IMG/VR virus record: IMGVR_UViG_3300023199_000051
Span: 114,165 to 178,164 of that record
Strand: one strand, 5' to 3'
Length of the DNA stretch: 64,000 nt
DNA from: a virus
This document shows positions 29,120 through 50,328 of the stretch, piece by piece (within the stretch, counting starts at the first letter, position 1; the number at the start of each line of letters is the position of its first letter). Under the pieces are notes generated by a model. The model was not told the DNA's origin and searched no databases. It saw nothing but the letters and a program-made list of their open reading frames with translations. The position numbers and the translations under genes were made by a program.

Positions 29120-32100
29120 ATGGCTGACTGGAAACAGAAGTACGAGGCTCTGGTCTCGCCGTCAGGTCTCAACGAGTACCAACACGCCAGCGTCGATGAG
29201 CTGGTCCGAGCAGCCAAGACGCCGGCTCCATTGCGGCTCGTGGCTGCAGCTGGTTCGGGGAAGAGCCGCACGATCATCGCTGCAACCAGCAAGGCAGTGA
29301 ACGAGGGCATTCTCCAACCAGAAGACATCATCGTCACCACGTTCACGCGCAAGGCGGCCGACGAGCTGCAGGAGAAGATCAAGGCTCACGTCAACCCGAA
29401 GCTCTGGCATCGACTGTCCAAGCGCATCAACACCTTCCACGGCCTGGCGCTGCGCTGGTTGATGTCGAAGGGGACGAAGAACCAGCAAGTCATCGCGGAG
29501 TACCCCAACGGCTTCAAGCGTGACAAGAACCTGGACGGGAAGGTCCGGACAAGGCGCCGTGAGGTAGGAGAGGAGGGTGAGACCAAGACGGAGACGGTTG
29601 GCCTCCCGATCAATGCGTCGCGCCTGTGGAGCCGGATCATCGGCCAGCCTTGGTTCAACTACAAGAAGGGAGGCGGCAAGACCCCGCGAGAGATCCCCGG
29701 CTTGGAGGGGACCGGCTTCTACGGCCTCGACGTCTCCGGTTCCGACGAGGAGAAAGCAGCGGGTCTCGTGCCGACAGGGGGAGACTACGCACTCGCAATC
29801 GGTCTCATCCGGTCCCGAGCGAAGGCGCGCACCGACGAGCATGCGCAGCAAGCACTCTGGGCCATGCAGCGCTTCGCAGGAGATGTCGTACTGGACAGCA
29901 GGGTCCTCGTTCAGGTGAGCCACGAGGAACAGCGAAAGGCCCGCGACTGGCTCGCCGACAACAAGTACAACATCGAGAGCCCGCTGCCTTTCATCGACCA
30001 GGCATGGAAGTGGTACGACCGCGCCAAGGACAAGCTCAAGGCATGGGACTTCGCGGACGCGCTTCACGTCTACTGGAAGCACGGTACCGAGTCCGCGAAG
30101 CTCATCATCGTCGACGAGGCACAAGACAACTCCTGGATGCAGCTCGACATCGCCCGGCAAATCGCTGAAAGAGGAGGAGGAAAGTTCGCTATCGTCGGCG
30201 ACGTGCGCCAGTCGATTTATTCGTGGAGGGGGGCCATGCCTTCCTACATGGAGAACGCTGACAGGACGCATGGCGCCAAGACGCTGGAGATCCCGACCAA
30301 CTACCGGAGCGGTCGCCAGATCGTCGAGCTGGGCAACACCATCAGCGGAGGCAAGTCCTGGGCGGTGGGCAGCCAGGCCATCCCAGCTCGGCGCAACGAC
30401 TTCCCAGCCCCCGCAGACTGGTACCGGCTCAACGCTGTGCAGGAAGGCGAGTCTCAAGCGGAGATCGCTCAACCGACCGCGCTGAGCTTCGTAGACGCTG
30501 TCGACGACCAGAAGCACAAGCTGCCGCGCGGGTACGTAGGTGTGCTCAACGCCGTCGATGGTGATCCGTCCGACGGAGCTGAGGAGATCGCGGCGGCCGT
30601 CAAGAAGGCGCTCGATGCAGGCGCAGACCCGAAGGACATCGCTGTCCTGGTCCGAACCAACAGCCTCGGCGAGTTCATCGAGTTTGGACTGCTCAAGGCC
30701 GGCATCCCGGCCGTGCGCCTTGGCATGGACTACAACTTCTTCGATCGCGCGTCGGTAGCAGCGGGCCTGGCCTACATGCTGATCTCGTCGCCGACCTACA
30801 ACAGCAATCCGGCACTCGCCGAGCGGAGGGCGCGGAACAAGCCGGCGCACCTCGAACGCATCGTGAACACTCCCAAGCGGTACCTCTCCCCCAAGAGGGT
30901 GACGAAGGCTGTCGCGGCGCACATGAAGCGCAACCCCGGCAGCTCGATCGTCGACGGCATTGATGCCATCATTCGGGGTGGCGGGCGGTACAACGGCAAC
31001 TACGTGGCCTCCAAGTACCGCGGTGTCGAGAACCTACGTGATCTGCGTGCGACCCTCATTGACTTGAGCAGCAAGTCCTGGGAGGAGCTACCACTCGCTG
31101 TCTACGACGTCCTCAACCCAGAGACGGATGAGGAGGATGAAGAGGATGAGAGGGAGGACTCCGAGCGTGCCCTGTCCCGCAACCTGGCAGCCATCGCAGA
31201 AGGCTTCGATGACCTCAACACCTTCCTGCAGTTCGTTGGCCGTGTACAGCAGACACGGGTCTCGTTCCGCGACTCCGACATGGACAATGCAAAGAAGGCT
31301 GCCGAGGCTCAGAAGGCCATGTCCGAGCGTGTGACCATCTCTACGGTGCACCGGAGTAAGGGCCTTCAGTGGCCAACCATCTTCATCCCATGTACCGACG
31401 GCATCTTCCCGCTGGACCGCGCGCTTGACCGTGACCCAGAAGAAGAGCTGCGCCTGTTCTACGTGGCCGTGACCCGTGCACAGGACAACTGCATCCTGAC
31501 GTACTCGGACTACCGACTCGGGCGTAAGCCAGGACAGGTCTCTGTGGATAAGGTAGCAAGCACAGGGCCTGGACGGTACATCTACCGGATCTTCACCCCT
31601 TTCTACAGGGAGCAGCGCGCGCTCGATGAAGCGCTGCTCCGCGCGAAGCAGGCTCCGTGGAAGCTCGTCGATGATGACACCGAAGAGGCGCTGTTCAACC
31701 GTACCTTCACCTGGCGCAACCCAGTCGCCCCAGAGTGGTTCGTGCGCGTCGTTGAGCGTCCAGCTCCCAACGACCCGCAGACCAGTGATGAAGGTGTAGC
31801 GGGAGCGGTATGGACGGTCAGCAGTAAGTTCGGCGGGCAGGGCTGGCAGGTCGTGACCGCTCCAGAAGGTTTCCAGGGGGACGAGACCGTCCTCGATGAC
31901 AGCGAGCGTGCACACTGGCGGATGCCTGCTGAAGCAGTAGAGGTGGCCATCACGTACATGGAGAGCAATGCTGGGAAGTCACACGTCGGCATCGACGATG
32001 CCGCCGAGATTCGCTTTGCGGACTTCGTGTCCTGGGTCGCACAGATGGAGGGGGAGGTTCGTGAAGGCCTGACCTACGCCGACTTCGCGACCTGGCTCAC

Positions 32101-35707: not shown

Positions 35708-36154
35708 ATGAAGCAGGGCAGTGACAAGCCGCTCAACAAGGGTGCAGAGGCGGCCAGGGCCTTCGGGCGCAAGCTCCGCGAGCTGCGGAAGGCAGCTGGT
35801 CTGTCGCAGCGACTGCTGGTGCATGCAGCCTCTGAAGGCAACCACATCCCAGGCATCGTCACTCCGGCGATGGGCCACTGGGAAGTGGGTCGCCGCATCC
35901 CGCTGCCAGGCCAGCTGTACGTGATCATGGAGGCCTTGAACGCCACGGAGGCCAACCGGCTGGCCCTCCTTGACCTGGCGGCCGAGGCCAACCTCACCTA
36001 CCGCGACATGATGGGGATGGTGGAAGGGCTGCCTGACAGCGACCGTCTCCAGCGATGGGAGTTTCAGGCCGCCTCCTCCTTCCAAGGGCTCCGCGCCACC
36101 CGCAGCGAGTGGCGTCAGCTCAACAAGGAGGCGGCAGAAGAAGATGCAGCGTAG
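35708..36154 (+). CDS. XRE-family HTH regulator
   Basis: FGRKLRELRKAAGLSQ...GHWEVGRRIP. Confidence 0.8.
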   Translation: MKQGSDKPLNKGAEAARAFGRKLRELRKAAGLSQRLLVHAASEGNHIPGIVTPAMGHWEVGRRIPLPGQLYVIMEALNATEANRLALLDLAAEANLTYRDMMGMVEGLPDSDRLQRWEFQAASSFQGLRATRSEWRQLNKEAAEEDAA

Positions 36155-36170
36155 CCGTCGAACCGATGCT

Positions 36171-36293
36171 TTTCCCCTGTGGGAAATCGAGAGTGGTGCT
36201 CTCGGCGGGGGTGTGGTGACCCCCATGGATCTGTAGAGGCTTCGGCCGACACAGCTCCCGAGTGGGCAGTCCTGGAGACAGGGCTGCCCACTT
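36171..36293 (+). ncRNA. Candidate structured RNA (five consecutive hairpins)
   Basis: Stems TTTCCC/GGGAAA, CGAGAG/CTCTCG, GGGGGT/ACCCCC, a UUCG-capped stem, and a 14-bp GAGA-capped stem. Confidence 0.5.
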
Positions 36294-36358
36294 CTAGTTG
36301 TAGGGGCCCTGCGCATAGTGACAGGTTAGAAGTAGGGTTTCGCTGATGACTAGCGCTG

Positions 36359-36379
36359 TGTGGTACAGGAGGCTACAAT
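36359..36379 (+). promoter_or_regulatory. Conserved promoter/operator motif driving CRISPR array 1
   Basis: TGTGGTACAGGAGGCTACAAT. Confidence 0.7.
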
Positions 36380-36390
36380 AGGAGCACCTA

Positions 36391-36569
36391 CGAGCGGTCC
36401 AGTGCTGCACTACAGCACGGTCACCGCTCGCAGGGACCCTTGATCCTTGAAAACCAGCGGGTGTGTTAGCGAAAACGCACTCGTAAGCTGCTGGTGCCAG
36501 CAGCCTAAAAGGCACCCGCTCGCACAGCTACCCGGAGCCCCGCTCTGTGTGCGAATCGTGAGTAGGGAG
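36391..36569 (+). promoter_or_regulatory. CRISPR leader 1 (structured, boxA-like element 36440-36454)
   Basis: Two blocks near-identical to leader 2; TTGATCCTTGAAAAC. Confidence 0.8.
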
Positions 36570-37502
36570 GTCGCAGCGGTCTGCTGACTGCTGCGTGTGT
36601 TGGAGCGGCCTGCACAGCCCGCCGTCATCGAGCCCGTGCACGGTCGCAGCGGTCTGCTGACTGCTGCGTGTGTTGGAGCATCGCAACCGTGTCAAGCTGG
36701 TTCGTCGGCATCGGGTCGCAGCGGTCTGCTGACTGCTGCGTGTGTTGGAGCTGCGTGGCGAGGTGCTCCGCCCAGATGGCGTCTGGTCGCAGCGGTCTGC
36801 TGACTGCTGCGTGTGTTGGAGGTAGTCGGAGGAGTCGATGGCGCCGCGGGGGTGGTCGTCGCAGCGGTCTGCTGACTGCTGCGTGTGTTGAAGGCGACTG
36901 GAGCTGCGCACCTTGTGCCGGGCAACGCGAGGTCGCAGCGGTTTGCTGACTGCTTCGTGTGTTGAAGGGTCATCGGCACCCGGCGCACGATCGGGATGCC
37001 ACTTCGTCGCAGCGGTCTGCTGACTGCTGCGTGTGTTGGAGGGTCATGGTGGTCTCCGCTAGCATCGCGGAGGACCTCGGGCGCAGCGGTCCGAGGGCTG
37101 CTGCGTGTGTTGGAGCGCGGAAGTACCGGGCTTCGACCTGGGCGTCTGTTGCCTCCGGCGCAGCGGTCTGCTGACTGCTGCGTGTGTTGGAGAGAGGCGT
37201 GTGTTGGAGGTGGGATGGGTGGTCATCGGATACCATATTCATGCTCGTCGCAGCGGTCTGCTGACTGCTGCGTGTGTTGGAGGCCCATCCGGGAGGTCAT
37301 CGACGACCTCGCCGAGCAGGTCGCAGTGGTTGAGAGGCCGCTGCGTGTGTTGGAGGATCAGGAAGAAGGCCAACTGGAAGGGGCGCCACTCGGGGCCGCA
37401 GCGGTCTGTTGACTGCTGCGTGTGTTGGAGCCCGTTTCCGCCCTTCAGAAACACTGTGCCGGCGGGGTCGCAGCGGTCTGCTGACTGCTGCGTGTGTTGA
37501 AG
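36570..37502 (+). CRISPR. CRISPR array 1: 13 repeats, 12 spacers
   Basis: Repeat GTCGCAGCGGTCTGCTGACTGCTGCGTGTGTTG(G/A)AG plus a C/G (37 nt); 9-bp hairpin; distal repeats diverge; possible degenerate repeat at about 37543. Confidence 0.98.
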
Positions 37503-37613
37503 CCACGACGAGCCGGGCGTGTATATCGGGGAGCTGCGTCGGGGCGTAGCGGTCGGAACTCCATTGCACGAAAAGGCAGTTTATGCCTGCAATATGAAGA
37601 ATTGTGTGCGGTT

Positions 37614-37634
37614 TGTGCCACGGCAGGCTACATT
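37614..37634 (+). promoter_or_regulatory. Conserved promoter/operator motif
   Basis: TGTGCCACGGCAGGCTACATT. Confidence 0.7.
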
Positions 37635-37662
37635 AGGGGTGTCACCAACGAGGAAGACGTCA

Positions 37663-38256
37663 ATGCTCCCCACCACGGATAGCACCGAACACCACCATTT
37701 GGAGTGTCTGATACTGAGGTCAACCTCAAAGCTGCGGCGTGTTCGAGAAGCACGCGGGTACTCCCAGGTCGCACTCGCCCAACGCACTGGGGTCAGCCAG
37801 CCAGACATCTCTGCCCTGGAGCGTGAAGCGCTGTCTCCGACTGGAACAAATGGCACCTGGCGCTGCCAGGTCTACGACCTGGCAGACGTGTTGGGGGTGC
37901 TCCCGGGGGAGTTGTTCCCCAGAGCAGACGCACCCTGCACGGTCCCACTTGATCATGCCGCTAGCGTGGCTCACCCCGCTGACCTGGAAGCCCTCATTGA
38001 GGTCCACGAGGACATCCAGCTTCTCATTGTCGCCATGGAGCAGTTGCCAGCACAGGGCCGTCGCGCTCTGGCTCTGCGCTATGGAATCGGCGGCCACGAA
38101 GAGCACAGCCTCGCTGCAGTCGGCCGGAAGCTGACGCCGCCTGTGGGCGCGGAACGTGCCCGTCAAATTGTGCGCACGGCCTACTTCCAACTCCGTGAGT
38201 GTGGCCCTATCCCCGCTGCCTACCCTTCCCTCATGTACACCCCCCGGAGCTTCTGA
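37663..38256 (+). CDS. XRE HTH fused to sigma70 region-4-like domain
   Basis: LRRVREARGYSQVALAQRTGVSQPDISALE; LPAQGRRALALRYGIGGHEEHSLAAVG...GAERARQI. Confidence 0.8.
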   Translation: MLPTTDSTEHHHLECLILRSTSKLRRVREARGYSQVALAQRTGVSQPDISALEREALSPTGTNGTWRCQVYDLADVLGVLPGELFPRADAPCTVPLDHAASVAHPADLEALIEVHEDIQLLIVAMEQLPAQGRRALALRYGIGGHEEHSLAAVGRKLTPPVGAERARQIVRTAYFQLRECGPIPAAYPSLMYTPRSF

Positions 38257-39824
38257 TGAAATGGTTCGACATCGACAAAGAGGGCATGCGCAAGGTGCTT
38301 GCCCGTCGCAGCATCGCCCACGCGCTGCTGGAGCTGGTACAGAACGCGCTCGACGAGCCCGGCACGACGAGCGTGAAGGTGCGGATCAGCCCGGTGCCCC
38401 GCAAGCCCTTCGCCTGGGTCGAGGTGTCCGATGACGCGCCGGAGGGCTTCAAGCGCCTGTCCGACGCCTGGACGCTGTTCGCCGAGAGCTGGAAGAAGGG
38501 GGACGCGACCAAGCGCGGCCGGTTCAACATCGGTGAGAAGCTGGTCCTCGCCATGGCCCGCGAAGCGGCCATCACGACGACGACGGGGACCGTCCTCTTC
38601 GAGGAGGCTGGGCGCCGCCGCACCCGCGCTTCGACCGAGAAGGGCTCCCTGGTCTGGGTGCTGCTCCGCATGACCCGCGCTGATGTGGCTGAGGCGGAAG
38701 CTGTGCTTCACCGCGTCCTGGTCCCGGATGGGATCACCTTGACGGTGGCCGTCACTGGGGAGGGACCGGGCGACGATCTATCCACCGTGGTCGAGCCGTC
38801 GGAGCCCCTGGCCGTCTCCACCGTCTCGCTGCCCACCGAGATCGCCGACGATGGGGGCTACCTGCGCCCCACCGCCCGCAAGACCACAGTCGCCATTCAC
38901 GAGCCTGCCGACGACTCTGGCGCCTGGCTGTATGAGATGGGGATCCCCGTCGTCCAGCTCGACACGCCCTGGTCGGTCGACGTTCAGCAGCGCATCCCGC
39001 TCAACCTCGACCGGGACAACGTCACGCCGGCCTACGCCCGGAAGGTGCACGCCGCGGTGCTCAACACCATGCGGGAAGAGCTGAGTCGCTCCGAGGAGCA
39101 CCGAGGCTTCAGTGCTTGCGAGCCCTGGGTTCGGGAGGCATCTGGCGCTCCAGAATGTGACGACGACGCATTCAAAGCGGTCCTCGACGCACGCTTCGGC
39201 GAAGACCGGGTCATGGCCGACCCCTCCGACCGCGAGGCTGGTATGAACGCCGTCAGTCACGGATACAAGCTGGTGTACGGCAACCAGCTCAACGCCGGGA
39301 AGCGCAGGAAGCTCCGCGAGCTGCGTGCCAAGGGCGACGACCCCCTCGTCCCGGCCGGGCGTACCCGCTTCAAGAGCCCCAAGCCCTACAGCGACGATCC
39401 CGACGCGCCCCAGGTCAAGGTCATCCCCGAGTACGACTGGACCGACCGGCAGCACGAGGTAGTCGCCTACGCCAAGCATGTCGCGGCCGAGCTGGGCGTC
39501 ACGCTCCAGCTCACCGTGCGCATCGTCCACACCACCAACGGCTTCGCAGCCTGCTACAGCCCTGGACAGCTCGACCTCGGACAGCTCGACCTCAACCTCT
39601 TCCGCCTGGGCCACGACTGGTTCAAGGGCACGGGTCCGGGTGCCCTGGAGCGCGTCAACGATCTGTTCATCCACGAGTTCGGTCACCACTACGAGGACAA
39701 CCACCTGTCCAGCGACTACCACGACGCCTTGACCCGCCTGGGGGCAGCTCTGACCCGCGCCGCCTTGGAGCGGCGGCTGCGCCCTGGCGACTTCGGCTAC
39801 AAGCTGTCTGGGGGTGCGCAATGA
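38256..39824 (+). CDS. GHKL (HSP90/MORC-like) ATPase with C-terminal HExxH motif
   Basis: LLELVQNALD, VSDD, GRFNIGEK, KGS; LFIHEFGH. Confidence 0.78.
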   Translation: MKWFDIDKEGMRKVLARRSIAHALLELVQNALDEPGTTSVKVRISPVPRKPFAWVEVSDDAPEGFKRLSDAWTLFAESWKKGDATKRGRFNIGEKLVLAMAREAAITTTTGTVLFEEAGRRRTRASTEKGSLVWVLLRMTRADVAEAEAVLHRVLVPDGITLTVAVTGEGPGDDLSTVVEPSEPLAVSTVSLPTEIADDGGYLRPTARKTTVAIHEPADDSGAWLYEMGIPVVQLDTPWSVDVQQRIPLNLDRDNVTPAYARKVHAAVLNTMREELSRSEEHRGFSACEPWVREASGAPECDDDAFKAVLDARFGEDRVMADPSDREAGMNAVSHGYKLVYGNQLNAGKRRKLRELRAKGDDPLVPAGRTRFKSPKPYSDDPDAPQVKVIPEYDWTDRQHEVVAYAKHVAAELGVTLQLTVRIVHTTNGFAACYSPGQLDLGQLDLNLFRLGHDWFKGTGPGALERVNDLFIHEFGHHYEDNHLSSDYHDALTRLGAALTRAALERRLRPGDFGYKLSGGAQ

Positions 39825-40525
39825 GCAACCCCCTCGACAACATCGACGACGCCACACTGGCAGCTGCAGTGCGGGAGGCGCTGTACGTCGAAGCCTGCCA
39901 CGTCACAGGAACGCACAATCCACGGCACACACCCCTGTACATCTGCGTGGAACAGAAGAGGGCGATGGTCGGCCGGTTGCTGCGGGAGCTGAAGCTGAGT
40001 GCCTACGACCTTCCCCGAAAGGGGGACTACTGGACACGGCGGTACCAGGAGCAGGCCAAGAGCGGCGACCAGAAAGCGTTGCTTACCTGGGGCATGGAGG
40101 AGGCATGGCTGGACTACTGGGCGCCTGCTGACGTGCTACGGGGCCTGGACCATGGACCCTGGGACTACGGAGAACGGGAGCGGCTGGCGCGCCGCCTGCG
40201 TAAGGAGCTGACCATCGAGATCCCCCTCTCGACGTCGGCTGGCAGGAAGGCTGGCAAGTACCACGGGCCCTTGGTCGGCATCGAGATGGTGGCACATGGG
40301 CTCCTCATCACGCCCCGGCCGAACCTGTACTCGGTGAGCACTTTCCGGTACTGGCTCCTGGTGAGGCTGACTGGTGGCGTGCGCCTGGTCACGGTCGACG
40401 GCAGCTACCACAAGGCCGACACCGAAGCGCCTACCAGCACTCCCCTCTCCGGGGCCAAAGAGATTGCATCGTGCATCAAAGAGTGCGTCGAAGCACTGAA
40501 ACCGGCAGATACCTCCACGTCGTAG
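39821..40525 (+). CDS. Hypothetical protein
   Basis: ATGA overlap, 234 aa. Confidence 0.55.
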   Translation: MSNPLDNIDDATLAAAVREALYVEACHVTGTHNPRHTPLYICVEQKRAMVGRLLRELKLSAYDLPRKGDYWTRRYQEQAKSGDQKALLTWGMEEAWLDYWAPADVLRGLDHGPWDYGERERLARRLRKELTIEIPLSTSAGRKAGKYHGPLVGIEMVAHGLLITPRPNLYSVSTFRYWLLVRLTGGVRLVTVDGSYHKADTEAPTSTPLSGAKEIASCIKECVEALKPADTSTS

Positions 40526-40541
40526 CCTCTCGTGCTACATT
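40521..40541 (+). promoter_or_regulatory. Conserved operator motif variant
   Basis: CGTAG-N9-CTACATT. Confidence 0.5.
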
Positions 40542-40730
40542 CCTGATACACCCTCACTGTTGACATCCCGGAGTAGGCATGTCTGAGTCCACACACCGCG
40601 AGACTGACCGCGAACGCGAGGCGCGACTGCGCCGGTATGCCTTCGTCGCCACCGTGCTGCTTGCGCCCTTCTGGGTGCCGGCTGGCATCGCTGCAGGGCT
40701 CATGGATAGCTGCTGCCAGCGGGGGGCGCA

Positions 40731-41240
40731 ATGACTGAAGCTGCCATCCGTGCCGAGTTCGAGCGCCTGTGCACCCTGGATGTCTTCGGAGGCGTCTTCG
40801 ACGAACGGCTGCCCGCGCTCCACCTTGAGCAGCACAGCGACGTCCGGCGCTGCAAGGGCGAAGCCGATCTCGATGACTGGCTCGTCGTCGTGCACCTCTG
40901 GGAGGGGCAGAGCTGGGGTGAGACACGCGAGACGATGCTGCACGAGCTGGTGCATCTGTCGGGGCCAGCCTGCTGGCGCGGCCACTACGCACCCTTCAAG
41001 CGCAAGCTGCTCGCAGCTGCACTGGAAGCCTGGGGCTTGCAGGGCAGCCTGCTCGGGTGGACGCCGTGCCAGCCGTACCGCCAGCTCGACCACCATCTCG
41101 TCGACGCCCTGGACCACCCATGGAGGACAGCTGTGAAGAGGGCTGTCGCTGAAGCGGTGGAACACCTGCGACTGCTGCTGTCCGTGAGGGCGGTCGGAGC
41201 GGCTGGCTGCACCGGGCTGCGGGGGGCCGGTGATGAATGA
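40731..41240 (+). CDS. SprT-like zinc metalloprotease domain protein
   Basis: ETMLHELVHL...HYAPFK. Confidence 0.7.
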   Translation: MTEAAIRAEFERLCTLDVFGGVFDERLPALHLEQHSDVRRCKGEADLDDWLVVVHLWEGQSWGETRETMLHELVHLSGPACWRGHYAPFKRKLLAAALEAWGLQGSLLGWTPCQPYRQLDHHLVDALDHPWRTAVKRAVAEAVEHLRLLLSVRAVGAAGCTGLRGAGDE

Positions 41241-41490
41241 CCGCCTGCCTTGTGGCCACCACACTGCGTGTGTCGTCTCCACCGACGAGGGCACGCACTA
41301 TTGCGGGCGGTGCGAGGAGGTTGCTCGCCTCCTCGACGACACCGAGCGGCTGCAGGCCGAGATTGACCGCCTGCAAGCCAACGCCACCGCCCGCGAAGGG
41401 TTGCTGCGCCGCCGGACTGATGCACTACGTGAGGCCGAGCGGGAGCGGGCTGCCTTGCGGTCGCGGTCGGAGGAGGACCCCGATGCGTGA
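41230..41490 (+). CDS. Hypothetical protein (Zn-finger plus coiled coil)
   Basis: CGHH...CGRC then heptads. Confidence 0.45.
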   Translation: MMNDRLPCGHHTACVVSTDEGTHYCGRCEEVARLLDDTERLQAEIDRLQANATAREGLLRRRTDALREAERERAALRSRSEEDPDA

Positions 41491-41569
41491 TCCGCACTGG
41501 CATGCCGTCGGACAGGTAGGAATCTTTCGAGGATAGGTGACGCAGGTACCTTTGAGAGGGTATGTAGTA

Positions 41570-41590
41570 TGTGTCACATTAGACTACACC
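41570..41590 (+). promoter_or_regulatory. Conserved promoter/operator motif upstream of cas operon
   Basis: TGTGTCACATTAGACTACACC. Confidence 0.65.
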
Positions 41591-41628
41591 GCACACACTG
41601 AACACCCAGCACCGAGGACTCAACAGCA

Positions 41629-42432
41629 ATGGATACTGCGACCCACCGAAGAGGTGCGGACCGTGACCAGCACGTCACGCTCCGCCTCTGGGGACTGGAA
41701 GCGCTGTGGACGCCGGCGCACGTCCGGGCCAACCCCTACAGCTACCCGGTTCCGACCTACAGCGCGTTGAAGGGCGTCCTTCGCGCCATCTACTGGAAGC
41801 CGCCCTTCGAGTACGAGCCCTTGTGGGTGTCCGTGCTCAAGCCGATCCGGTACGAGACCCGATCGATGATCGGAGTGGTCAACACCCTGGCACAGGCTGA
41901 CAAGGACCCTGACGGTAACGGCGGCCGTACTCGCTACACGCAGAGCATCCTGTGGGACGTCGACTACGTGGTGCGGGCGCGGCTCGTCAAGAACCCCCAC
42001 TACCCGCACAAGACGCTGCATGCGTACCACCAGGAGATTCTGCGACGGATGCGGCGTGGCGAGCAGTATGGGCCGCTGTACATGGGCAAGTCCGAGTTCG
42101 CCGCCAACTACGAGCTGATCGAGGAGGGCGACGAGCTTCCAGCCCCGCAACCCATCACGATGGACCTGGGGAGCATGCTCTTCGATCAGATCCCCCTACA
42201 GCTGGGCAGCTGGCGCAGCCGGAGGAGGTGGCGCAAGCGGAAGGCTGCAGGCCGCAAGGTCAGCAAGCGGGAGCCCTGGAAGCAGGAGCTGATGCCCGTG
42301 TTCCACAAGGCCACGATGCAGGGCGGCGTGGTTCACTTCCCGGCCGATCTGATGGACCGCTACCGCGACCAGATCTTCGAGGCGCGGGCCAAGACCCACC
42401 AGGACACGAGGGGGGACCATGTTGCTGCTTGA
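41629..42432 (+). CDS. cas5: Type I-C Cas5 (Cas5d)
   Basis: LRLWG...SYPVPTYSALKGVLRAIYWKP...VLKPIRY...ILWDVDYVV...LYMGKSEF matches the Cas5c/d pattern. Confidence 0.92.
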   Translation: MDTATHRRGADRDQHVTLRLWGLEALWTPAHVRANPYSYPVPTYSALKGVLRAIYWKPPFEYEPLWVSVLKPIRYETRSMIGVVNTLAQADKDPDGNGGRTRYTQSILWDVDYVVRARLVKNPHYPHKTLHAYHQEILRRMRRGEQYGPLYMGKSEFAANYELIEEGDELPAPQPITMDLGSMLFDQIPLQLGSWRSRRRWRKRKAAGRKVSKREPWKQELMPVFHKATMQGGVVHFPADLMDRYRDQIFEARAKTHQDTRGDHVAA

Positions 42433-44362
42433 CAAGCTGATCGAGCGATCGCGTCATACCCAGGTGCTCCCAGGATACGCCAAGTCCGAGTTCTCTGTTG
42501 TGCTGCACGTCGGGAAGGATGGCACCTTCAAGGGCATCGAGGTGCTCGATGAGCCTCGCACCGAGATCGTGCCCACCAATCCGGTCAGGACAAGCTCTGT
42601 GGTGGCAATGACTGCCATCGACAACGCGCTGTACACCCTGGGGGCCGCGCCTCCTGGCCGGTCTGCCGAGTGGGTTGCGAAGCGCCACCAAGCGTACCTC
42701 GGCATGCTGAGCAAGATCGACCACCCTGCATGCAGGCTGATCGAGAAGGCACTGGCGCAGAGCCCAGCCGTGGTGGGGTGGGACAAGCAGGTGCCCACGC
42801 AGGCGCAGCTTGCCCAGGTCATGGAAGCTGATGAAGTACAGCGCACCGGGCCTGGCAAGAAGGCGCTGATCAAGCGTGGAAAACTGACGCCGAACAGCCA
42901 GGTGGTGGGCGCGCACAAGTGCGCCATCACCAGCGCAGCTCGCTACGTAGACGCAGCCTCTGTGCTGCATGTGTCGGGCCTCAGCGACAAGTCGATGATC
43001 CTGATTGACGTCGAGGGCCACGAGCAGTGGTGGTGCGATCCCGCTGTGGACGCGGTGCACACCAGGCGTCGGCTGGAGGCCAACAACCGAGAGGGGACAC
43101 CCCGCATGTGGCCGTGCTCCCTGTGCGGGGAGACGCGCACCATCACCCGGCTGTTCCGCTCCAGCCACGTCCTGAGCGGTGGCCTCATCAGCTTCAACGG
43201 AGCTGCGTGGAGTGGCTACAACCGCAAGCAGGGCCGCTGTGCACCTACGTGCATGGAGTGTGCAGAGCGCATCGGCATCGGCCTCGACGCCATCCTGCGC
43301 ACCCCAGGCACGCTCAAGTGGCTGGGTGGGGAGGAGGACTATCGGCTTGTGTGGTGGGCTGACGATCCCGGCAAGCCGGGCCCGTGGCCTGCGCTCAGCA
43401 AGGCGCTCGACATGGAGACGCCCGACGAGGATGCGGAGGAGCTGCTCAGTCAGATCACAGCCGGCCAGCTCATCAGCCTCACTCAGCAGGAGAAGCGTCT
43501 GTCGCTACGGCGTCACGTCCAGGTGGACCCCGAGGTGGTGCGGGAACGTGTCATGCGGTGGCGGCGCGTCCACCGCCGCTTCCTGGGGGAAGACCGGCAA
43601 GCATGGCCCGTGAGCACCGCTCATGCGTTGCGCTTCGATGGAGCCACGAGGCAGGCGAAGCTGTCGAACCGGAACCCCGGACTCCTGCGGCGCCAGGAGA
43701 TGATCTACCTGTACCTCCTCGGCGGACAGCCGTTCTGCCGACGAGAGACCAACTGGGCGCAAGCACTGTTGGACAGGCAGCACCCCGACGACCACCAGAA
43801 GACAACCAACCTGCGCCGGGCGGCGTTTCTGACGTTCGCCGGTGCTCCCTACCAGCAGGAGAAAGACATGGAGTTCGCAGTGACTGCGTACGACGACAAG
43901 GGACGTCCGATCAGGACGTGCCGAGCCCCGGAGGAAAGCAACCTCGACCTGGCCGAGCTGGCCGTGTTCTACCTCGGACGCGCCCTCGCTCGGGCAGCCG
44001 ACAACCAGACCAGTGGGGGTCGCTCCGTCCAGACGCGCGTCGACAGCACCTACAGCAACCTCGTGAAGCGGCGCCCCGGCGACGTCTACAGGATCATCAA
44101 GTCCAGCTACAGCCAGTACGAGTTCTTCAACGAGAAGACGCAGCGCCGGACGAAGGTCGACGACAAGGTGATGGAGGTACTGCTGAGCCGGACGGTGGAG
44201 TTCCAGCCGCTCAACGGCCTCCCTGCCCCCATGGATCCCCGCCAGTGCGTCATCTTCGACAAGGGCTACTACTTCCAGCGCTTCCTCCGGGATGCATACA
44301 TGGAGGTGTGTGCGCAGGAGGCTGCCGAGGAGGAGGCTGCCGAGGAGGTGGCTGCCAAGTAG
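42419..44362 (+). CDS. cas8c: Type I-C large subunit Cas8c (Csd1)
   Basis: RTSS...DNALYTLG; CSLCG...LISFN..AWSGY.RKQG..AP; FYLGR; position between cas5 and cas7. Confidence 0.88.
   Translation: MLLLDKLIERSRHTQVLPGYAKSEFSVVLHVGKDGTFKGIEVLDEPRTEIVPTNPVRTSSVVAMTAIDNALYTLGAAPPGRSAEWVAKRHQAYLGMLSKIDHPACRLIEKALAQSPAVVGWDKQVPTQAQLAQVMEADEVQRTGPGKKALIKRGKLTPNSQVVGAHKCAITSAARYVDAASVLHVSGLSDKSMILIDVEGHEQWWCDPAVDAVHTRRRLEANNREGTPRMWPCSLCGETRTITRLFRSSHVLSGGLISFNGAAWSGYNRKQGRCAPTCMECAERIGIGLDAILRTPGTLKWLGGEEDYRLVWWADDPGKPGPWPALSKALDMETPDEDAEELLSQITAGQLISLTQQEKRLSLRRHVQVDPEVVRERVMRWRRVHRRFLGEDRQAWPVSTAHALRFDGATRQAKLSNRNPGLLRRQEMIYLYLLGGQPFCRRETNWAQALLDRQHPDDHQKTTNLRRAAFLTFAGAPYQQEKDMEFAVTAYDDKGRPIRTCRAPEESNLDLAELAVFYLGRALARAADNQTSGGRSVQTRVDSTYSNLVKRRPGDVYRIIKSSYSQYEFFNEKTQRRTKVDDKVMEVLLSRTVEFQPLNGLPAPMDPRQCVIFDKGYYFQRFLRDAYMEVCAQEAAEEEAAEEVAAK
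43868..44362 (+). CDS. cas11: Cas11 small subunit by internal in-frame translation
   Basis: AGGAG (43857-61), 6 nt, in-frame ATG; 164 aa containing FYLGRAL. Confidence 0.65.
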   Translation: MEFAVTAYDDKGRPIRTCRAPEESNLDLAELAVFYLGRALARAADNQTSGGRSVQTRVDSTYSNLVKRRPGDVYRIIKSSYSQYEFFNEKTQRRTKVDDKVMEVLLSRTVEFQPLNGLPAPMDPRQCVIFDKGYYFQRFLRDAYMEVCAQEAAEEEAAEEVAAK

Positions 44363-44375
44363 GCGTTCCTCCACA

Positions 44376-44427
44376 CTCAACACCCTTCGACTCAACACCC
44401 TTCGACTCAACACCCTTCGACTCAACA
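44376..44427 (+). repeat. 15-bp tandem repeat CTCAACACCCTTCGA x3.5 between cas8c and cas7
   Basis: Directly visible. Confidence 0.9.
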
Positions 44428-44444
44428 ACCACGAGGACTGAACC

Positions 44445-45368
44445 ATGACCACCCCCCACACCCCCACCACCTTCGACCCCGACTATGGGCTCCCCTGCGA
44501 CCCCAGGCAGAGCATGACCATGGTCGTGCTGCTGAGCTGCTACCACGGCATCCTCAACATGCGCCCAGACGGCTCTGGAGAGCCCCGCATGGACCCTGAC
44601 GGGCACAGCACCGCGACCGGCGAGTGCATCAAGCGCATCTGGCGCGACGGCGTGAAGATCGCAGGCGGCCTCGACCTCCTCTACGAGCGCGACTGCGACA
44701 TCGGGGACCGCACGTCCCCCTACGTCATCAAGAAGGGCAAGGAGGCGGGCAAGCTCGACCTCGAACGGATGTGCGCGGACTTCTGGGATGCTCCCCTGGG
44801 CACCCCGGCCACGGCGGCGAAGAAGCAGGCCGCGCTCCGCAGCGCACTGACCGTGCAGCTCTCGCGCAGCGTCGACGAGGTGCTCCCCGACCTGGAGCAC
44901 TTCGCTGGGACCATCGGCAACACCAAGGAGCGGGACGGCGCAGGTGACAGCAAGGAGAGCTACCTCTCTCGCGCCTTCAACACGCGCTTCCGCGTGCCCT
45001 TCGCCACCTACGTCACGCCCGTGATCTACCACCCGATGCTCGGCGCGAAGTACGGGATCACGCCTCAGTGGTTCCAGTCGCTGTACACCGGCATGATTGA
45101 CGGTCCCGAACACATCCTGTCCACCCAGCGGTCGGACCTCCGCGTGGAGGGGGTGTACGTCTTCACCACGTCGAAGATGCGGGGCGGCGAGCGCAAGTGC
45201 GACACCGTCAGCCGCGTGAAGATCGCGTGCAAGGAGGGCGTCATCGGAGGGCGTGCCAAGCGCTTCAGCGACTACGAGATCACCGTCGACGACGACATGC
45301 CCCCCTGGATGCAGCTCTACAGCTACGTGCCCGCCCTGCAGCGCAGCGAGCAGGCCGCCGCCAAGTAG
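44445..45368 (+). CDS. cas7: Type I-C Cas7 (Csd2), divergent
   Basis: GILNMRPDGSGEPRMDPDGHSTATGECIKRIWRD parallels NGNPNGDPD..NxPR.D....VTDVCLKRKIR; VQLSRSVD. Confidence 0.88.
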   Translation: MTTPHTPTTFDPDYGLPCDPRQSMTMVVLLSCYHGILNMRPDGSGEPRMDPDGHSTATGECIKRIWRDGVKIAGGLDLLYERDCDIGDRTSPYVIKKGKEAGKLDLERMCADFWDAPLGTPATAAKKQAALRSALTVQLSRSVDEVLPDLEHFAGTIGNTKERDGAGDSKESYLSRAFNTRFRVPFATYVTPVIYHPMLGAKYGITPQWFQSLYTGMIDGPEHILSTQRSDLRVEGVYVFTTSKMRGGERKCDTVSRVKIACKEGVIGGRAKRFSDYEITVDDDMPPWMQLYSYVPALQRSEQAAAK

Positions 45369-45397
45369 AACGCGCCCACACACACAAGGAGACCCCC

Positions 45398-47719
45398 ATG
45401 AAGTACAAGCCCCTCAGAGCGTGCCAACAGAGCGCGCTGGATTCCATGATGCCTCTCGACTGGCGCACCTTCGTCCTCGCCGCTCCAACCGGCAGCGGTA
45501 AGTCGTGGGTGATCGCGGGCCTCGCGTACCTCAACCTCAGGTGGCAGGGGAGACGTCCTGCCTGCTGGGGTGACGCCTCCGAGGTCAAGAAGGTCATCGT
45601 GGCCACTCCGATGCAGCACATCGAGAGCGGCTACGTAGACGAGGCGTGCTTCCATTACTCCGCGGAGGGGGTCCGCACGCCGCTGCGCGTCAAGGTGGCC
45701 GAGGACTTCTGGCTGCGCGTCCGGGAGATGAAGGGTGCGGCCGGGGACAACCTGCGCAAGCTCGTGTCCGGCGAGAAGGGCACGGGTGGGCGGGCCATCC
45801 TCACGTCACACCAGCTCCTTGTGAGCGTCTACAAGGACGGGGGGTTGCCGGCCGACATGAGCGACACGATCATCATCCTCGATGAGGGCCACCACCACGG
45901 GGAGTCTCCTACTGCGATCTACCGCGTGGTTCAGGAGATGAGGCGGCGAGGAGCCCGAAGCGTGCTGCCAACAGCGACCCCTCTCCGGTCTGATGGACAT
46001 GCGCTCCACGCAGTCAGTGATGGAGTGAAGTGGCACATCACAACCTACTCCTCACTCGCCAGGCGGAAAGAGGCCCCCTCCAAGCTGTGCCTGGACGTAG
46101 CCACCAGCAGTGCAGGGGGACGCGCACGCGACTACTTGCTGGGGCAGGACCTCGACCTCATCGTCGACAAGGCACTGGCCTACCGCGACGAGAGCGGTGC
46201 CCTCAGACCTGTACACATCCACCTGCCGCCGTCCGCCTACAAGGGCCAGGCATACGCCGTGGCCCAGCTGGTGATCGAGCGGCTTGTGGCCCGTGGTGTG
46301 CCTCGCAGCGTCATCCTCGACACGACCTCGACCGAAGACACATCGGAGGAAGTGTCGAAGAAGACGCAGCGCGTCCTCAAGGCGGAGAACGCGCGCATCA
46401 AGGAGGGAGGCTACGAAGCCGCCGCAATCCGGGTCGTCATTGACTGCAAGCGCTTCGGTGAAGGTGCCAACCTCCCGACGCTGTCGCATGTCATCCTCGT
46501 CGGCGTCACGCAGTCGCTGGCACATCTCATCCAGATCATCGGACGCAGCACGCGCTGCAAGCTCCCACCGGCTCTCGCAGGATACCCAGAGCAGTGGCAG
46601 GATGAAGTCCGCGTCACAGCGCTGGTGCCTCACCTTGACAGCCCGACTGCCATCGAGGACCACGCAGCGCGGATCGTCATGCTGTCCTGCCTCTTGGAGT
46701 GCTCGACAGCCGCCTACGACATCGAGTGCTTCTGGGCCCCCTACGCTCCTGGGATGCGCCTGCCGCCTCGCACGCCTATCACAAAGGGCGACGTATCTCA
46801 GCTGGCTCCGCTCTCCCCGGAGGAGCGGGTAGAAGGGGCCATGGTAGGCACGAAGGCCGCCGCACGGCTGTGGAAGCTGTATGGCCGCATGCCGACCATC
46901 GAAGAGCTGCTGCGGGAGGTCGGGATCATCCTGGGCGGCGAAGACCGGACGGTCCTGGAGACCATCCTTAGCCAGGCCGCCGAGGCAGATCCGGCAGTAG
47001 CTGCATCACTGGAAGAGGCCGCCGCCGATGTCTGCGACCGGCTTCAAGAAGCCTTCGACCAGGAAGACATCAAAGACAGGTCCGAGCTGACGGCCTGGTA
47101 CGAAGAGCACATGCACGACGCCCTCAAGCAGGTTGCCAAGAACCACGCCGATCTCACCTACCCTCACCATGTAGGAGATCGTCTGGTGGGACTCAGCAGC
47201 GTCCTGTCAGCAGACCGCATGGCCAAGATCGTCGCCGAGATGGAGACGGGCCGGGACGCAGCCTTCAACACGATGAGCCTCCCCGAGATCATCGAGAACA
47301 CCATCAACCCCTTCATAGCGAAGCACAAGAAGCTGCCGCAGCTCGACGATCCCATGTGGCTCGACTCCGCCTACCAGCACGACTACCAGATCATGCGTGC
47401 CGTCGATCGGCACCTGCGCAGGAAGGGCATCAGCTTGTCGCATGCAAACGCGCTACGGCAGTACCTCCACCAGGGTCCAGTCGACAAGGCCACCATGAGC
47501 CTCGTCCGGCAGGTCTTTGCGGGGCGGCGGCTTCCAATGTTCACCGTCGAGGATTGGAAGAAGCCCAGCCAGCTCGCAGCTGCAATGCAGACACCGCGGC
47601 TCAACTTGCAGCGGTACGGTGTCCGTGGCGAGAGCCTGCTGCACCTGACCATGTGCGCTCGCTACGGCTGGAGGGGCTTCGAGGGAGGTCAGTCGCTCCC
47701 CGAGGCCCTTGGCCTCTAG
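45398..47719 (+). CDS. Cas-associated SF2 (ResIII-like) helicase lacking an HD nuclease domain
   Basis: AAGGAG RBS, ATG 45398; APTGSGKS starts at residue 29; ILDEGHH, TATPLRSD, GEGANLP, QIIGRSTR. Confidence 0.88.
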   Translation: MKYKPLRACQQSALDSMMPLDWRTFVLAAPTGSGKSWVIAGLAYLNLRWQGRRPACWGDASEVKKVIVATPMQHIESGYVDEACFHYSAEGVRTPLRVKVAEDFWLRVREMKGAAGDNLRKLVSGEKGTGGRAILTSHQLLVSVYKDGGLPADMSDTIIILDEGHHHGESPTAIYRVVQEMRRRGARSVLPTATPLRSDGHALHAVSDGVKWHITTYSSLARRKEAPSKLCLDVATSSAGGRARDYLLGQDLDLIVDKALAYRDESGALRPVHIHLPPSAYKGQAYAVAQLVIERLVARGVPRSVILDTTSTEDTSEEVSKKTQRVLKAENARIKEGGYEAAAIRVVIDCKRFGEGANLPTLSHVILVGVTQSLAHLIQIIGRSTRCKLPPALAGYPEQWQDEVRVTALVPHLDSPTAIEDHAARIVMLSCLLECSTAAYDIECFWAPYAPGMRLPPRTPITKGDVSQLAPLSPEERVEGAMVGTKAAARLWKLYGRMPTIEELLREVGIILGGEDRTVLETILSQAAEADPAVAASLEEAAADVCDRLQEAFDQEDIKDRSELTAWYEEHMHDALKQVAKNHADLTYPHHVGDRLVGLSSVLSADRMAKIVAEMETGRDAAFNTMSLPEIIENTINPFIAKHKKLPQLDDPMWLDSAYQHDYQIMRAVDRHLRRKGISLSHANALRQYLHQGPVDKATMSLVRQVFAGRRLPMFTVEDWKKPSQLAAAMQTPRLNLQRYGVRGESLLHLTMCARYGWRGFEGGQSLPEALGL

Positions 47720-47729
47720 TTTCATGCTG

Positions 47730-47908
47730 CGAGCGGTCCAGTGCTGCACTACAGCACGGTCACCGCTCGCAGTGACCTTTGATCCTTGAAAACCAGCGAG
47801 GGCTGCTGGCCAAGCAGCTCCGTGAAGTACCTTCTCACTGCATCGCAGAGGGGACCGCTCGCACAGCTACCCGGAGCCCCGCTCTGTGTGCGAATCGTGA
47901 GTAGGGAG
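47730..47908 (+). promoter_or_regulatory. CRISPR leader 2 (boxA-like element 47779-47793)
   Basis: Shares blocks with leader 1; starts 10 nt after the helicase stop. Confidence 0.8.
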
Positions 47909-49186
47909 GTCGCAGCGGTCTGCTGACTGCTGCGTGTGTTGGAGCGTGGTGCGGGTGGCGCCGGTGTCCAGCCTCCGACCCTGTCGCAGCGGTCTGCTGA
48001 CTGCTGCGTGTGTTGGAGCAAAGGTCGCCGTTGCAGAACGGTACGTGGCCCAGCGTCGCAGCGGTCTGCTGACTGCTGCGTGTGTTGGAGCGAAGAGGGC
48101 GGCCGGACAGCGCCCACACCCGAGTTGTCGCAGCGGTCTGCTGACTGCTGCGTGTGTTGGAGCGAGACCACCGGCAACACCTCGGGTCTCATCCGCCACT
48201 GGTCGCAGCGGTCTGCTGACTGCTGCGTGTGTTGGAGCCCTCGCGTGGTCGGTATGGTCGAGCATGCCCACCGAAGTCGCAGCGGTCTGCTGACTGCTGC
48301 GTGTGTTGGAGCGCGATCTGCGCGGCACCGGACACGTGCAGGTCTAGCGGTCGCAGCGGTCTGCTGACTGCTGCGTGTGTTGGAGCGAGTGCACGTTCCA
48401 GGTCCTCGACCAGGACCAGGCGGTCGCAGCGGTCTGCTGACTGCTGCGTGTGTTGGAGCCCCAAGAAGAGGGTGGTGGTCAACCTCGCCCCGGCCGGTCG
48501 CAGCGGTCTGCTGACTGCTGCGTGTGTTGGAGAGAGGCGTGTGTTGGAGCCGCTGCCGCTCAGCACCCGGAACATCGGTCGCAGCGGTCCGAGGGCTGCT
48601 GCGTGTGTTGGAGCGTGCCAGAGATCCGGCTCGTCTCTGGGTGCTCCAACACAGCCGCAGCGGTCTGCTGACTGCTGCGTGTGTTGGAGAGAGGCGTGTG
48701 TTGAAGCACCACATTGGTGGGCTCCGCCCCCTCCGCCCCCTTCTGTCGCAGCGGTCCGAGGGCTGCTGCGTGTGTTGAAGCGACGGGACCGGGCGGCACA
48801 GGCCAGCATCCTTCCGAGGTCGCAGTGGTCCGAGGGCTGCTGCGTGTGTTGAAGCTCGATCGGCGAACTCGACCGGGTGATGGGTCGACTGAGTCGCAGT
48901 GGTCCGGGGGCTACTGCGTGTGTTGGAGGGGCGTCTACCACGGCACCGTGCACCACGTGGTCATGGCGCAGCGGTTGAGAGACCGCTGCGTGTGTTGGAG
49001 GAAAGGGGCCCGGGGAAGGGTCATACCGTCCGTCATGGGCGCAGCGGTTAGCTGACCGCTGCGTGTGCCGAAGGCGTGTGTTGAAGGTCGATCATGTGGA
49101 GGCCGTGCTGGCGGTCGCAGCGGTTCGATGATCGCTGCTTGTGTTGGAGGGTGGGTGGAAGGCTGGAAGGGAGGCGTGTGTCGAAG
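47909..49186 (+). CRISPR. CRISPR array 2: 17 repeats (to 49149), 16 spacers, plus degenerate tail
   Basis: Same repeat as array 1; first 9 copies identical; distal variants keep the hairpin. Confidence 0.98.
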
Positions 49187-49307
49187 GATCGGGATGCGAG
49201 TCGTGAGCGCAGCAGCCGCGGTGCGGGGGCACTGACACCACCCGCGCATGTATAGCATTGCAGGAAAATGCAGGTTGAAACTGCGTTTTCAGTCGGTGAT
49301 GGCATGG

Positions 49308-49328
49308 TGTAGTACAATAGGCTACATT
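49308..49328 (+). promoter_or_regulatory. Conserved promoter/operator motif
   Basis: TGTAGTACAATAGGCTACATT. Confidence 0.7.
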
Positions 49329-49377
49329 ATGTGTGTCGAAGAAAGAAACATCCCCTCCCCCAACAGGATCACCACAC

Positions 49378-50328
49378 ATGGGCGTCTACACCTACACCAT
49401 CAGGACCGACAAGCCGGCTATGACCGTCAACGGAGAGTACATCTACCGCCTGGAGTACGCCGAGCTGACCCGCGACGGCAAGCACTCCGACCGGGCTATC
49501 GAGAAGGCGGACCAGTCTTGGAAGCAGCGCGGGTACCCCGTGGTGCTCTGTGCCATGACCGATGACAAGGGGCGCACCTTGGACGGCGAGGAGATCCGAC
49601 GTGTCAACACCGCTGACACCGTCCACTGGTACGACTGCGACCCGATGCCGGGCGAGCTGGCCGGCTACTGCCACAACAGCAAGATCGTCAAGCCGGCTGC
49701 CTACCTCCGTTTGCTCTGCCGCAGGGGGCCTGGAGGTAGCATCGAGGGCAAGCTGCGTCAGTACCTCGGCGATGCCCTCGCCGATCACTTCCGTTCGGCA
49801 CGGCATACCCTCGCTGACGTGGCCAACACGGGCGCAATCCTTGAGAGTGAGGCGCTGCGTCTCACCGAGATCATGGGCGGCTGCGATCGGCTCCGCGACT
49901 ACCTCACCGACAAGGGGCGTCCCTGGGTCAATGGCAACACCGGCTGCGTCCAGCTCGACAACATGCCGGCCGACGACCGCCGCGCCTACGACCGCGCCGC
50001 GCGGGCCCGCAAACTGGCCGATCGTCTGTGGCGCCTTGTGCCCGCCGACCGCCGCCGCGTGGCACCGTCGCTCGCGATCGAGACCAAACGTCTGCGCGAG
50101 GAGCATGGCGTCACCCGCGCCGACGGCAACAAGCACCGCGCGGTGCGGCGGGGGGACCGTGTCCTGTCCGCAGCCGGCACGCCGGGCACCTTCGTAGGCA
50201 CGACCGGCCCGGTGGTCGTCATCACCTGGGACGGCAATGGCGACAAGGCGCTCGCCTTCGACGCCCGGTTCCCGCTCGCTACGCTCTGGCCGTTCCGAAA
50301 CTTCGATTCCAAGCGGAAGGTGGCCTGA
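49378..50328 (+). CDS. Hypothetical protein
   Basis: 316-aa ORF behind the motif promoter. Confidence 0.6.
   Translation: MGVYTYTIRTDKPAMTVNGEYIYRLEYAELTRDGKHSDRAIEKADQSWKQRGYPVVLCAMTDDKGRTLDGEEIRRVNTADTVHWYDCDPMPGELAGYCHNSKIVKPAAYLRLLCRRGPGGSIEGKLRQYLGDALADHFRSARHTLADVANTGAILESEALRLTEIMGGCDRLRDYLTDKGRPWVNGNTGCVQLDNMPADDRRAYDRAARARKLADRLWRLVPADRRRVAPSLAIETKRLREEHGVTRADGNKHRAVRRGDRVLSAAGTPGTFVGTTGPVVVITWDGNGDKALAFDARFPLATLWPFRNFDSKRKVA

Follow-up and report, generated by a model that had tools for sequence, protein, structure and literature searches.

In canonical type I-C CRISPR-Cas systems, such as those of Desulfovibrio vulgaris and Neisseria lactamica (Cascades 8dex and 8g9t), the effector is made of Cas5c, Cas8c and Cas7 without a Cas6, the genes run in the order cas5-cas8c-cas7, and they are accompanied by Cas3 (HD domain plus helicase) and by cas4-cas1-cas2. 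Al-Shayeb 2020 (PMC7162821) described, in two related huge phages, a I-C variant without Cas1/2 in which a helicase stands in place of Cas3 and the Cas5d-like protein has altered active-site residues, and Benz 2023 noted the helicase-associated I-C variant and already proposed a non-cutting, type IV-like function. Here we analyze a locus in a 64,000-nucleotide (nt) stretch of viral DNA, positions 114,165 to 178,164 of IMG/VR record IMGVR_UViG_3300023199_000051 (hereafter the window, whose own coordinates are used unless stated), in which cas5c, cas8c and cas7 adjoin a gene for a 773-amino-acid (aa) superfamily 2 (SF2) helicase and are flanked by two CRISPR arrays. The description in Al-Shayeb 2020 fits this locus, which is phage-borne, has no Cas1/2 and carries a helicase for Cas3, the two helicases being compared by description only. 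The initial annotation of the window had cited that description, and the statement is indeed present in the paper. One point of difference is that no Cas-phi-type second system turned up in the parts of the present phage examined, no search having been aimed at one. STL6-S73, a locus from the supplement of the same study, was considered as a helicase variant and rejected; it carries a Cas3-like gene and a superfamily 1 (SF1) helicase.

Other described systems also bear on this locus. In type IV-A3, nuclease-free repression within transcribed regions depends on CasDinG, and host Cas1/2 supply new spacers in trans (Benz 2023). The type I variants I-E2 and I-F4 have likewise lost Cas3 from their Cascade and carry, as an acquisition, an HNH nuclease in fusion with Cas5 or Cas8. 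An incomplete I-C system with a Cas8-Cas5 fusion and no Cas3, perhaps a DNA binder, is described in Altae-Tran et al. 2023 (PMC10910872). The helicase-associated I-C variant was not found in the text of the 2025 CRISPR classification, nor did our literature search find a characterization of it.

The Cascade genes and their helicase

The features of the locus, all on the + strand, are as follows; five further genes lie between array 1 and cas5c.

36388..36569, +, leader of array 1, with two blocks common to leader 2
36570..37502, +, CRISPR array 1: 13 repeats of 36 nt, 12 spacers
41629..42432, +, cas5c, 267 aa (Pfam Cas_Cas5d 7e-14; PADLOC Cas5c 1.9e-32)
42419..44362, +, cas8c, large subunit, 647 aa (Cas_Csd1 2e-16)
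44445..45368, +, cas7, backbone subunit, 307 aa (Cas_Cas7 5e-19)
45398..47719, +, SF2 helicase/translocase, 773 aa: RecA core at residues 1-440 (DExH), all-alpha C-terminal domain at 440-773
47727..47908, +, leader preceding array 2, duplicating that of array 1
47909..49149, +, CRISPR array 2: 17 repeats of 36 nt, 16 spacers

Unlike canonical I-C, this system has neither Cas3 nor cas4-cas1-cas2 and possesses an unrelated SF2 helicase instead. Its helicase aligned with generic helicase models but not with those of Cas3: cas3_core scored 10 bits against a cut-off of 102, at the generic Walker A, and NCBIfam gave no match. Helicase motifs I, II (DExH), III and VI are intact (Walker A LAAPTGSGKS at residues 27-36, DEGHH at 162-166, TAT at 192-194 and QxxGRxxR at 379-386), and the ResIII and Helicase_C profiles match. 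Our searches revealed no Cas3-type accessory domain in the protein and no match to DEAD_2 or Helicase_C_2. Among 32 relatives, across which the ATPase motifs are invariant, a Cas3 model was reached by one, at 0.005, while other models were matched more often (XPB by 10, the dnd restriction helicase by 10, RadD by 9). When a profile of these 32 relatives was searched against solved structures, the top matches were XPBII (6.5e-17), Rad25 (5e-14), RadD (6e-12) and HsdR (4e-9), and Cas3 was absent among the best 60 PDB matches. The helicase is thus not a Cas3 by sequence, and its profile lies nearest XPB/Rad25, RadD and HsdR.

The N-terminus of the protein opens with a Q motif and the Walker A, whose G34 and K35 are invariant in the family. 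Its ATG at 45398 is preceded by an AAGGAG Shine-Dalgarno sequence, and the N-terminus aligns with the family start, M1 being present in 88% of the 32 relatives; given this start codon and the family-wide N-terminus, an N-terminal HD domain has no room. An alignment-based model of the helicase (mean predicted local distance difference test score, pLDDT, 84) was used for fold comparison, and a single-sequence AlphaFold model (pLDDT 38) was discarded. The modeled core (residues 1-440) gave structural Z scores of 21.8 to FANCM, 20.9 to RadD and 20.5 to INO80, compared with 16.6 and 16.0 to Cas3 chains and 16.4 to CasDinG, and the nearest folds in a viral structure library were phage SSL2-type helicases. 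By fold ranking alone, this is suggestive of a core nearer to double-stranded DNA (dsDNA) translocases than to Cas3. The best profile and fold matches to the core are thus XPB/Rad25, RadD, FANCM/Hef, the HsdR translocases and phage SSL2 (COG1061), with which it shares the DExH motif set. The likeness is a superfamily-level match (13-17% identity); no XPB-, RadD- or HsdR-specific accessory domain was detected, and the C-terminal domain is unique to the family.

This C-terminal domain (residues 440-773, about 330 aa) is all-helical in the model and matched nothing in Pfam or among PDB sequences, whether searched singly or as a profile. Conserved in it are RLPP (454-457) and GWRG (757-760); no conserved His or acidic cluster was seen across the 32 relatives, and in the protein of the window Leu stands, at two positions, for the Asp of most relatives. 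As far as sequence, profile and model go, no nuclease is recognizable in the domain. An HA domain, a lead from a protein atlas (score 0.76), was rejected, Pfam confirming it on no member.

The three Cascade proteins match I-C profiles in Pfam, NCBIfam and PADLOC and all score under the NCBIfam I-C equivalog cut-offs, so that they are best described as divergent I-C-type proteins; in this, too, they differ from canonical I-C, as does Cas8c, whose C-terminal half lies outside the Csd1 profile that covers its N-terminal half. Cas5c, matching solved I-C Cas5 chains at 4e-16 to 1e-14, is presumed to be both a Cascade subunit and the pre-CRISPR-RNA (pre-crRNA) endonuclease. The KH pair of solved Cas5c, which we take to be the catalytic residues, aligns with YH in the protein of the window. 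A Shine-Dalgarno sequence precedes each of the four genes.

The initial annotation had read the locus as a type I-C-type cas5-cas8c-cas7 with two arrays and a ResIII-like, non-Cas3 helicase that left no room for an N-terminal HD domain and showed no nuclease motif in its C-terminal region; the profile matches, repeat counts, family alignment and model bear out each of these points.

Two smaller observations concern the Cascade genes. Cas8c carries a CxxC...CxxC pattern (C233, C236, C278 and C281; residues 233-281) that is invariant in six family members and is likely a zinc-binding site. The cas8c-cas7 intergenic region contains, at 44375-44430, 3.7 copies of a 15-nt tandem repeat, ACTCAACACCCTTCG, which holds CTCAACAC, a near reverse complement of the CRISPR repeat tail GTGTTGGAG.

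An exhaustive HMMER search with the helicase returned 247 matches, of which about 35 are full-length relatives (700-800 aa, 25-33% identity), and in a quick tree of the helicase core 36 rows, including the window's protein, formed a supported group. Word-indexed homology searches with the helicase or Cas8c returned the query itself alone, and a scan with an eight-row alignment (one or two peptide patterns) gave one IMG/VR fragment and three metagenome loci but nothing from GTDB species genomes. The genes cas5, cas8c and cas7 adjoin the helicase in all 10 informative contigs, meaning those with sufficient flanking DNA, the contigs of the remaining relatives being too short to judge. Helicase identity in these 10 is 23-34%, and the genes occur in three orders (loci by our identifiers):

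cas5-cas8c-cas7-helicase: L003, L005, L007, L010 and the P0003 contig
helicase-cas5-cas8c(-cas7): L012, the P0018 contig, L027 and L028
helicase, array, then cas7-cas8c-cas5 convergent: L013

Across the family the four genes are kept at 23-52% identity. These sequence comparisons make the helicase a conserved signature gene, characteristic of a family with cas5, cas8c and cas7, and the case for counting it as part of the CRISPR system is the stronger for it. In L010 (6378-8840) and the P0003 contig, an 820-aa Cas5-Cas8c fusion is followed by cas7 and then by the helicase. The fusion followed by cas7 resembles the incomplete I-C system of PMC10910872, in the available portion of which no linked helicase is mentioned, whereas in these two contigs the helicase directly follows cas7; in the window, unlike in that system, cas5 and cas8c are separate genes.

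The contigs of the relatives are phage-like, up to 187 kb long and of 60-70% GC, and in L006 and L015 the helicase has arrays beside it. Neighbors comprise small unannotated genes, methyltransferases and an integrase, and weak Pfam matches to the Acb2/Tad1-hairpin family (anti-CBASS/Thoeris sponge) lie near the CRISPR module in L013 (18177-18539) and L014 (10561-11178). The helicases of L027 (436-6121) and L028 (628-3319) are the most distant from that of the window, with 23-24% identity, and are not part of the main clade, and the Cas5 and Cas8c of these loci are nonetheless the closest to those of the window (34-52%). This pattern suggests helicase exchange or very uneven rates. In L027, cas7 is frameshifted.

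Leaders, arrays and absent genes

The window is the final 64 kb of a virus record of 178,164 bp that carries direct terminal repeats and for which CheckV gives a completeness of 100%; the opening 60 bases of the record reappear 126 bases before its end. In the complete genome we found no match to Cas1, Cas2, Cas4 or Cas6 (PF01881) and none to cas3_HD, Cas3_HD or a generic HD domain, with positive controls in every one of these whole-genome searches. Further, no HNH or other nuclease domain was found by Pfam in Cas5, Cas8c, Cas7 or the helicase, in contrast to the HNH fusions of I-E2 and I-F4, and the annotated flanks of the relatives contained no Cas1, Cas2, Cas4, Cas3 or recurrent nuclease. 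The genome and the helicase are thus without a recognizable nuclease or adaptation gene for the CRISPR system. That cas1 and cas2 are missing had been noted at the outset for the window and now extends to the whole genome, which has no cas3-HD gene elsewhere either; nor did sequence, profile or model reveal a cryptic nuclease in the helicase C-terminus.

The two arrays share one orientation, the order on the + strand being leader 1, array 1, the five genes, cas5c, cas8c, cas7, helicase, leader 2 and array 2. Both leaders contain a block A of 72 nt that includes a long hairpin (36388-36459 and 47727-47798, 96% identical) and a block B of about 55 nt, identical in the two, immediately 5' of the first repeat. 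As first reported for this DNA, the leader-side repeats are identical, the first four in array 1 and the first nine in array 2, while the leader-distal repeats are degenerate. Every repeat variant folds as a hairpin, with a stem of 10 bp, a loop of 4 nt and a tail of 10 nt, and in the degenerate distal repeats the stem is retained via compensatory changes. A canonical I-C repeat similarly has a hairpin and a 10-11-nt tail like ...GUUGAAAC; the tail in the window is GUUGGAG, and that of the relatives is GUUGAAAC. Array 1 spacers are 35-41 nt long save one of 54 nt, and all 28 spacers are unique, setting aside an odd shared insert. From their sequence the arrays look functional.

The insert consists of AGAG and a further copy of the repeat's final 13 nt (GCGTGTGTTGGAG/GAAG), placed between a full repeat and its spacer. 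The AGAG type occurs in both arrays, at 37193-37209, 48533-48549 and 48690-48706, and a fourth insert, without AGAG, is at 49074-49086. In both arrays the inserts adjoin the repeat variant with a CCGAGGG loop. Their sequences suggest that integration was aberrant and that the two arrays then recombined with each other. The arrays of the relatives have I-C-like repeat ends, GUGUUGAAAC; in L007 (8693-9936) and L006 (78-832 and 3712-4484) there are at least two repeat types per array, whose hairpin sequences differ yet pair and whose GUGUUGAAAC tail is constant.

The existence of a helicase-associated I-C variant was thus already known (Al-Shayeb 2020, Benz 2023). New here are the family-wide linkage of the helicase to cas5, cas8c and cas7, its placement as XPB/RadD/FANCM-like and not Cas3- or DinG-like, the definition of an orphan C-terminal domain, and the genome-wide absence of HD and adaptation genes.

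Possible modes of action

We propose a type I-C-derived phage system with a dedicated motor of the XPB/RadD/ResIII kind in place of Cas3, which may silence or block its targets without a nuclease, in the manner of type IV-A, with spacers supplied in trans. Given the sequences, the model and the analogy, we regard this reading as evenly balanced between right and wrong. In such a system, pre-crRNA would be cut by Cas5c at the hairpin base, Cascade would open an R-loop wherever the DNA of the host, a rival phage or another mobile element matches, and the helicase would be drawn to the R-loop, perhaps via its family-specific C-terminal domain. ATP-driven translocation along the target DNA could then stall or evict RNA polymerase or replisomes, and the target would be silenced, or its replication blocked, without being cleaved; this would be an independent arrival at the logic of type IV-A and CasDinG. 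New spacers would come only from a compatible Cas1-Cas2(-Cas4) acting in trans or from recombination between the arrays.

The locus resembles type IV-A with CasDinG in being borne by a mobile element without an adaptation module or nuclease, the helicase being the sole enzymatic partner of a Cascade-like complex. In the proposed outcome (repression or blocking, and spacer acquisition in trans), the likeness is one of logic only. Unlike type IV-A, its Cascade is of type I-C and not Csf, and its helicase is XPB/RadD/ResIII-like and not XPD/DinG (Z of 16.4 to CasDinG compared with 21.8 to FANCM). A bolder form of the proposal, to which we give somewhat less than even credence, would make this the third independent helicase-coupled CRISPR interference after Cas3 and CasDinG, in which a phage-restricted I-C Cascade docks a dedicated XPB/RadD-like dsDNA translocase via a new all-helical domain and, without cutting, clears polymerases from targeted DNA, be it that of the host or of a rival phage.

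Several points weigh against nuclease-free silencing. The gap of about 5 Z units to Cas3 is measured among generic SF2 cores in a model and is suggestive only. The absence of a nuclease is profile, motif and model evidence, which leaves room for one that is novel or acts in trans. No protospacer, and with it no target or protospacer-adjacent motif, was found: the spacers gave no match above chance in the phage's own genome and none in related loci, those of both arrays none in GenBank phages, and those of array 2 none in plasmids. Finally, neither a host nor a compatible host adaptation module was found by a GTDB scan and a repeat search, the repeat pattern occurring in 0 genomes among 185,579 species representatives and in none of the viral contigs searched. 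The initial annotation, too, had inferred a non-cutting, type IV-like function, which is plausible, and the borrowing of host Cas1/2, for which these searches gave no direct support.

The best-surviving alternative is that interference is nucleolytic after all, the helicase at the R-loop recruiting or feeding a trans nuclease (a host enzyme, either of the RecBCD/AddAB type or a stand-alone HD Cas3'', or the product of another phage gene), or the C-terminal domain being a nuclease of unrecognized fold. We consider this unlikely, though well worth weighing. Among solved structures the nearest relative by sequence is archaeal XPB, whose working partner is the Bax1 nuclease, the 330 C-terminal residues have no known match at all, and the phage encodes exonuclease-like and SbcC-like proteins as well as a 1662-aa UvrD-like protein upstream. 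On the other hand, neither a conserved His nor a conserved acidic cluster is seen in the domain across 32 relatives, the protein of the window has Leu at two mostly-Asp positions, the genome is without an HD match, and no nuclease gene recurs beside the module in the relatives.

A less probable course, which we rate as improbable, is that the phage hijacks a host I-C Cas3 for cutting and that the helicase is accessory, serving R-loop or Cascade turnover, priming or protection of the phage genome. Cas5, Cas8c and Cas7 are recognizably I-C, and trans use of host parts by a mobile-element CRISPR system is documented for type IV-A3 adaptation. Such an arrangement sits uneasily with a helicase linked to cas5, cas8 and cas7 in 10 of 10 contigs, including in the slot upstream of cas5 that is the usual I-C place of cas3, with a Cas8c whose C-terminal half is unmatched by Csd1, and with the failure of the repeat to appear in any species representative. 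It is very improbable that the locus is a decoy Cascade which sequesters the crRNAs of the host, or a decayed remnant that no longer functions, and that an unrelated phage replication helicase is adjacent by chance, since, although adaptation and nuclease genes are absent, distal repeats are degenerate and one relative has a frameshifted cas7, the four genes are kept with invariant catalytic motifs in many lineages, the linkage persists through three rearranged orders, compensatory changes preserve the hairpins of degenerate repeats, and 12 and 16 unique spacers stand behind duplicated, conserved leaders.

For the role of Cas3-less, Cas1-less phage type I systems, this locus is a compact and complete test case of four genes, native leaders and two arrays, with family data pointing to the ATPase motifs and the RLPP and GWRG of the C-terminal domain as essential parts. 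If interference is indeed nuclease-free, the type IV-A strategy would have arisen independently on a type I scaffold, and the system would be an RNA-guided DNA motor capable of repression without DNA damage. Were it a third helicase-coupled solution, it would merit its own subtype or variant and would represent a compact, programmable, nuclease-free motor.

Genome setting and neighboring genes

The phage genome is 178 kb long with 63% GC, and its CRISPR locus has no DNA similarity to GenBank phages; Rfam gave no match within 36000-49600. Phage-type matches in the genome are limited to tail, virion-domain and replication families, the terminase families PF03237 and PF17289 have no match, and its phage status leans mainly on the virus record. 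Five large open reading frames (ORFs) with high GC at third codon positions, outside the window at 89363-103585 of the complete record (G000:C1), are candidate structural genes and have no PHROG or Pfam match. By these sequence searches the virion module is very divergent.

The genes between array 1 and cas5 comprise the following feature:

37519..41536, +, five genes: a helix-turn-helix (HTH) and sigma-70 region 4 protein, a 541-aa GHKL (HATPase_c) ATPase, and ORFs of 234, 169 and 99 aa

Within it, the HTH/sigma-70 region 4 protein, the GHKL ATPase and the 234-aa ORF, which overlaps, span 37519-40525. The five genes are not kept in related loci, bar a sigma-r4-like stretch in L005, and are not assigned to the CRISPR system here.

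Directly upstream of the CRISPR locus, the UvrD-like protein noted above is an SF1 helicase (29120-34108) with a C-terminal part of about 860 aa that received no assignment. Further upstream, a 1653-aa family A DNA polymerase (20326-25287) has an N-terminal UDG-like domain split by a LAGLIDADG-type intein. Finally, outside the window, the complete record contains two PAPS-reductase-like genes (phrog_424; G000:C1 21644-22873 and 44751-46754), a pair that hints at DNA modification.

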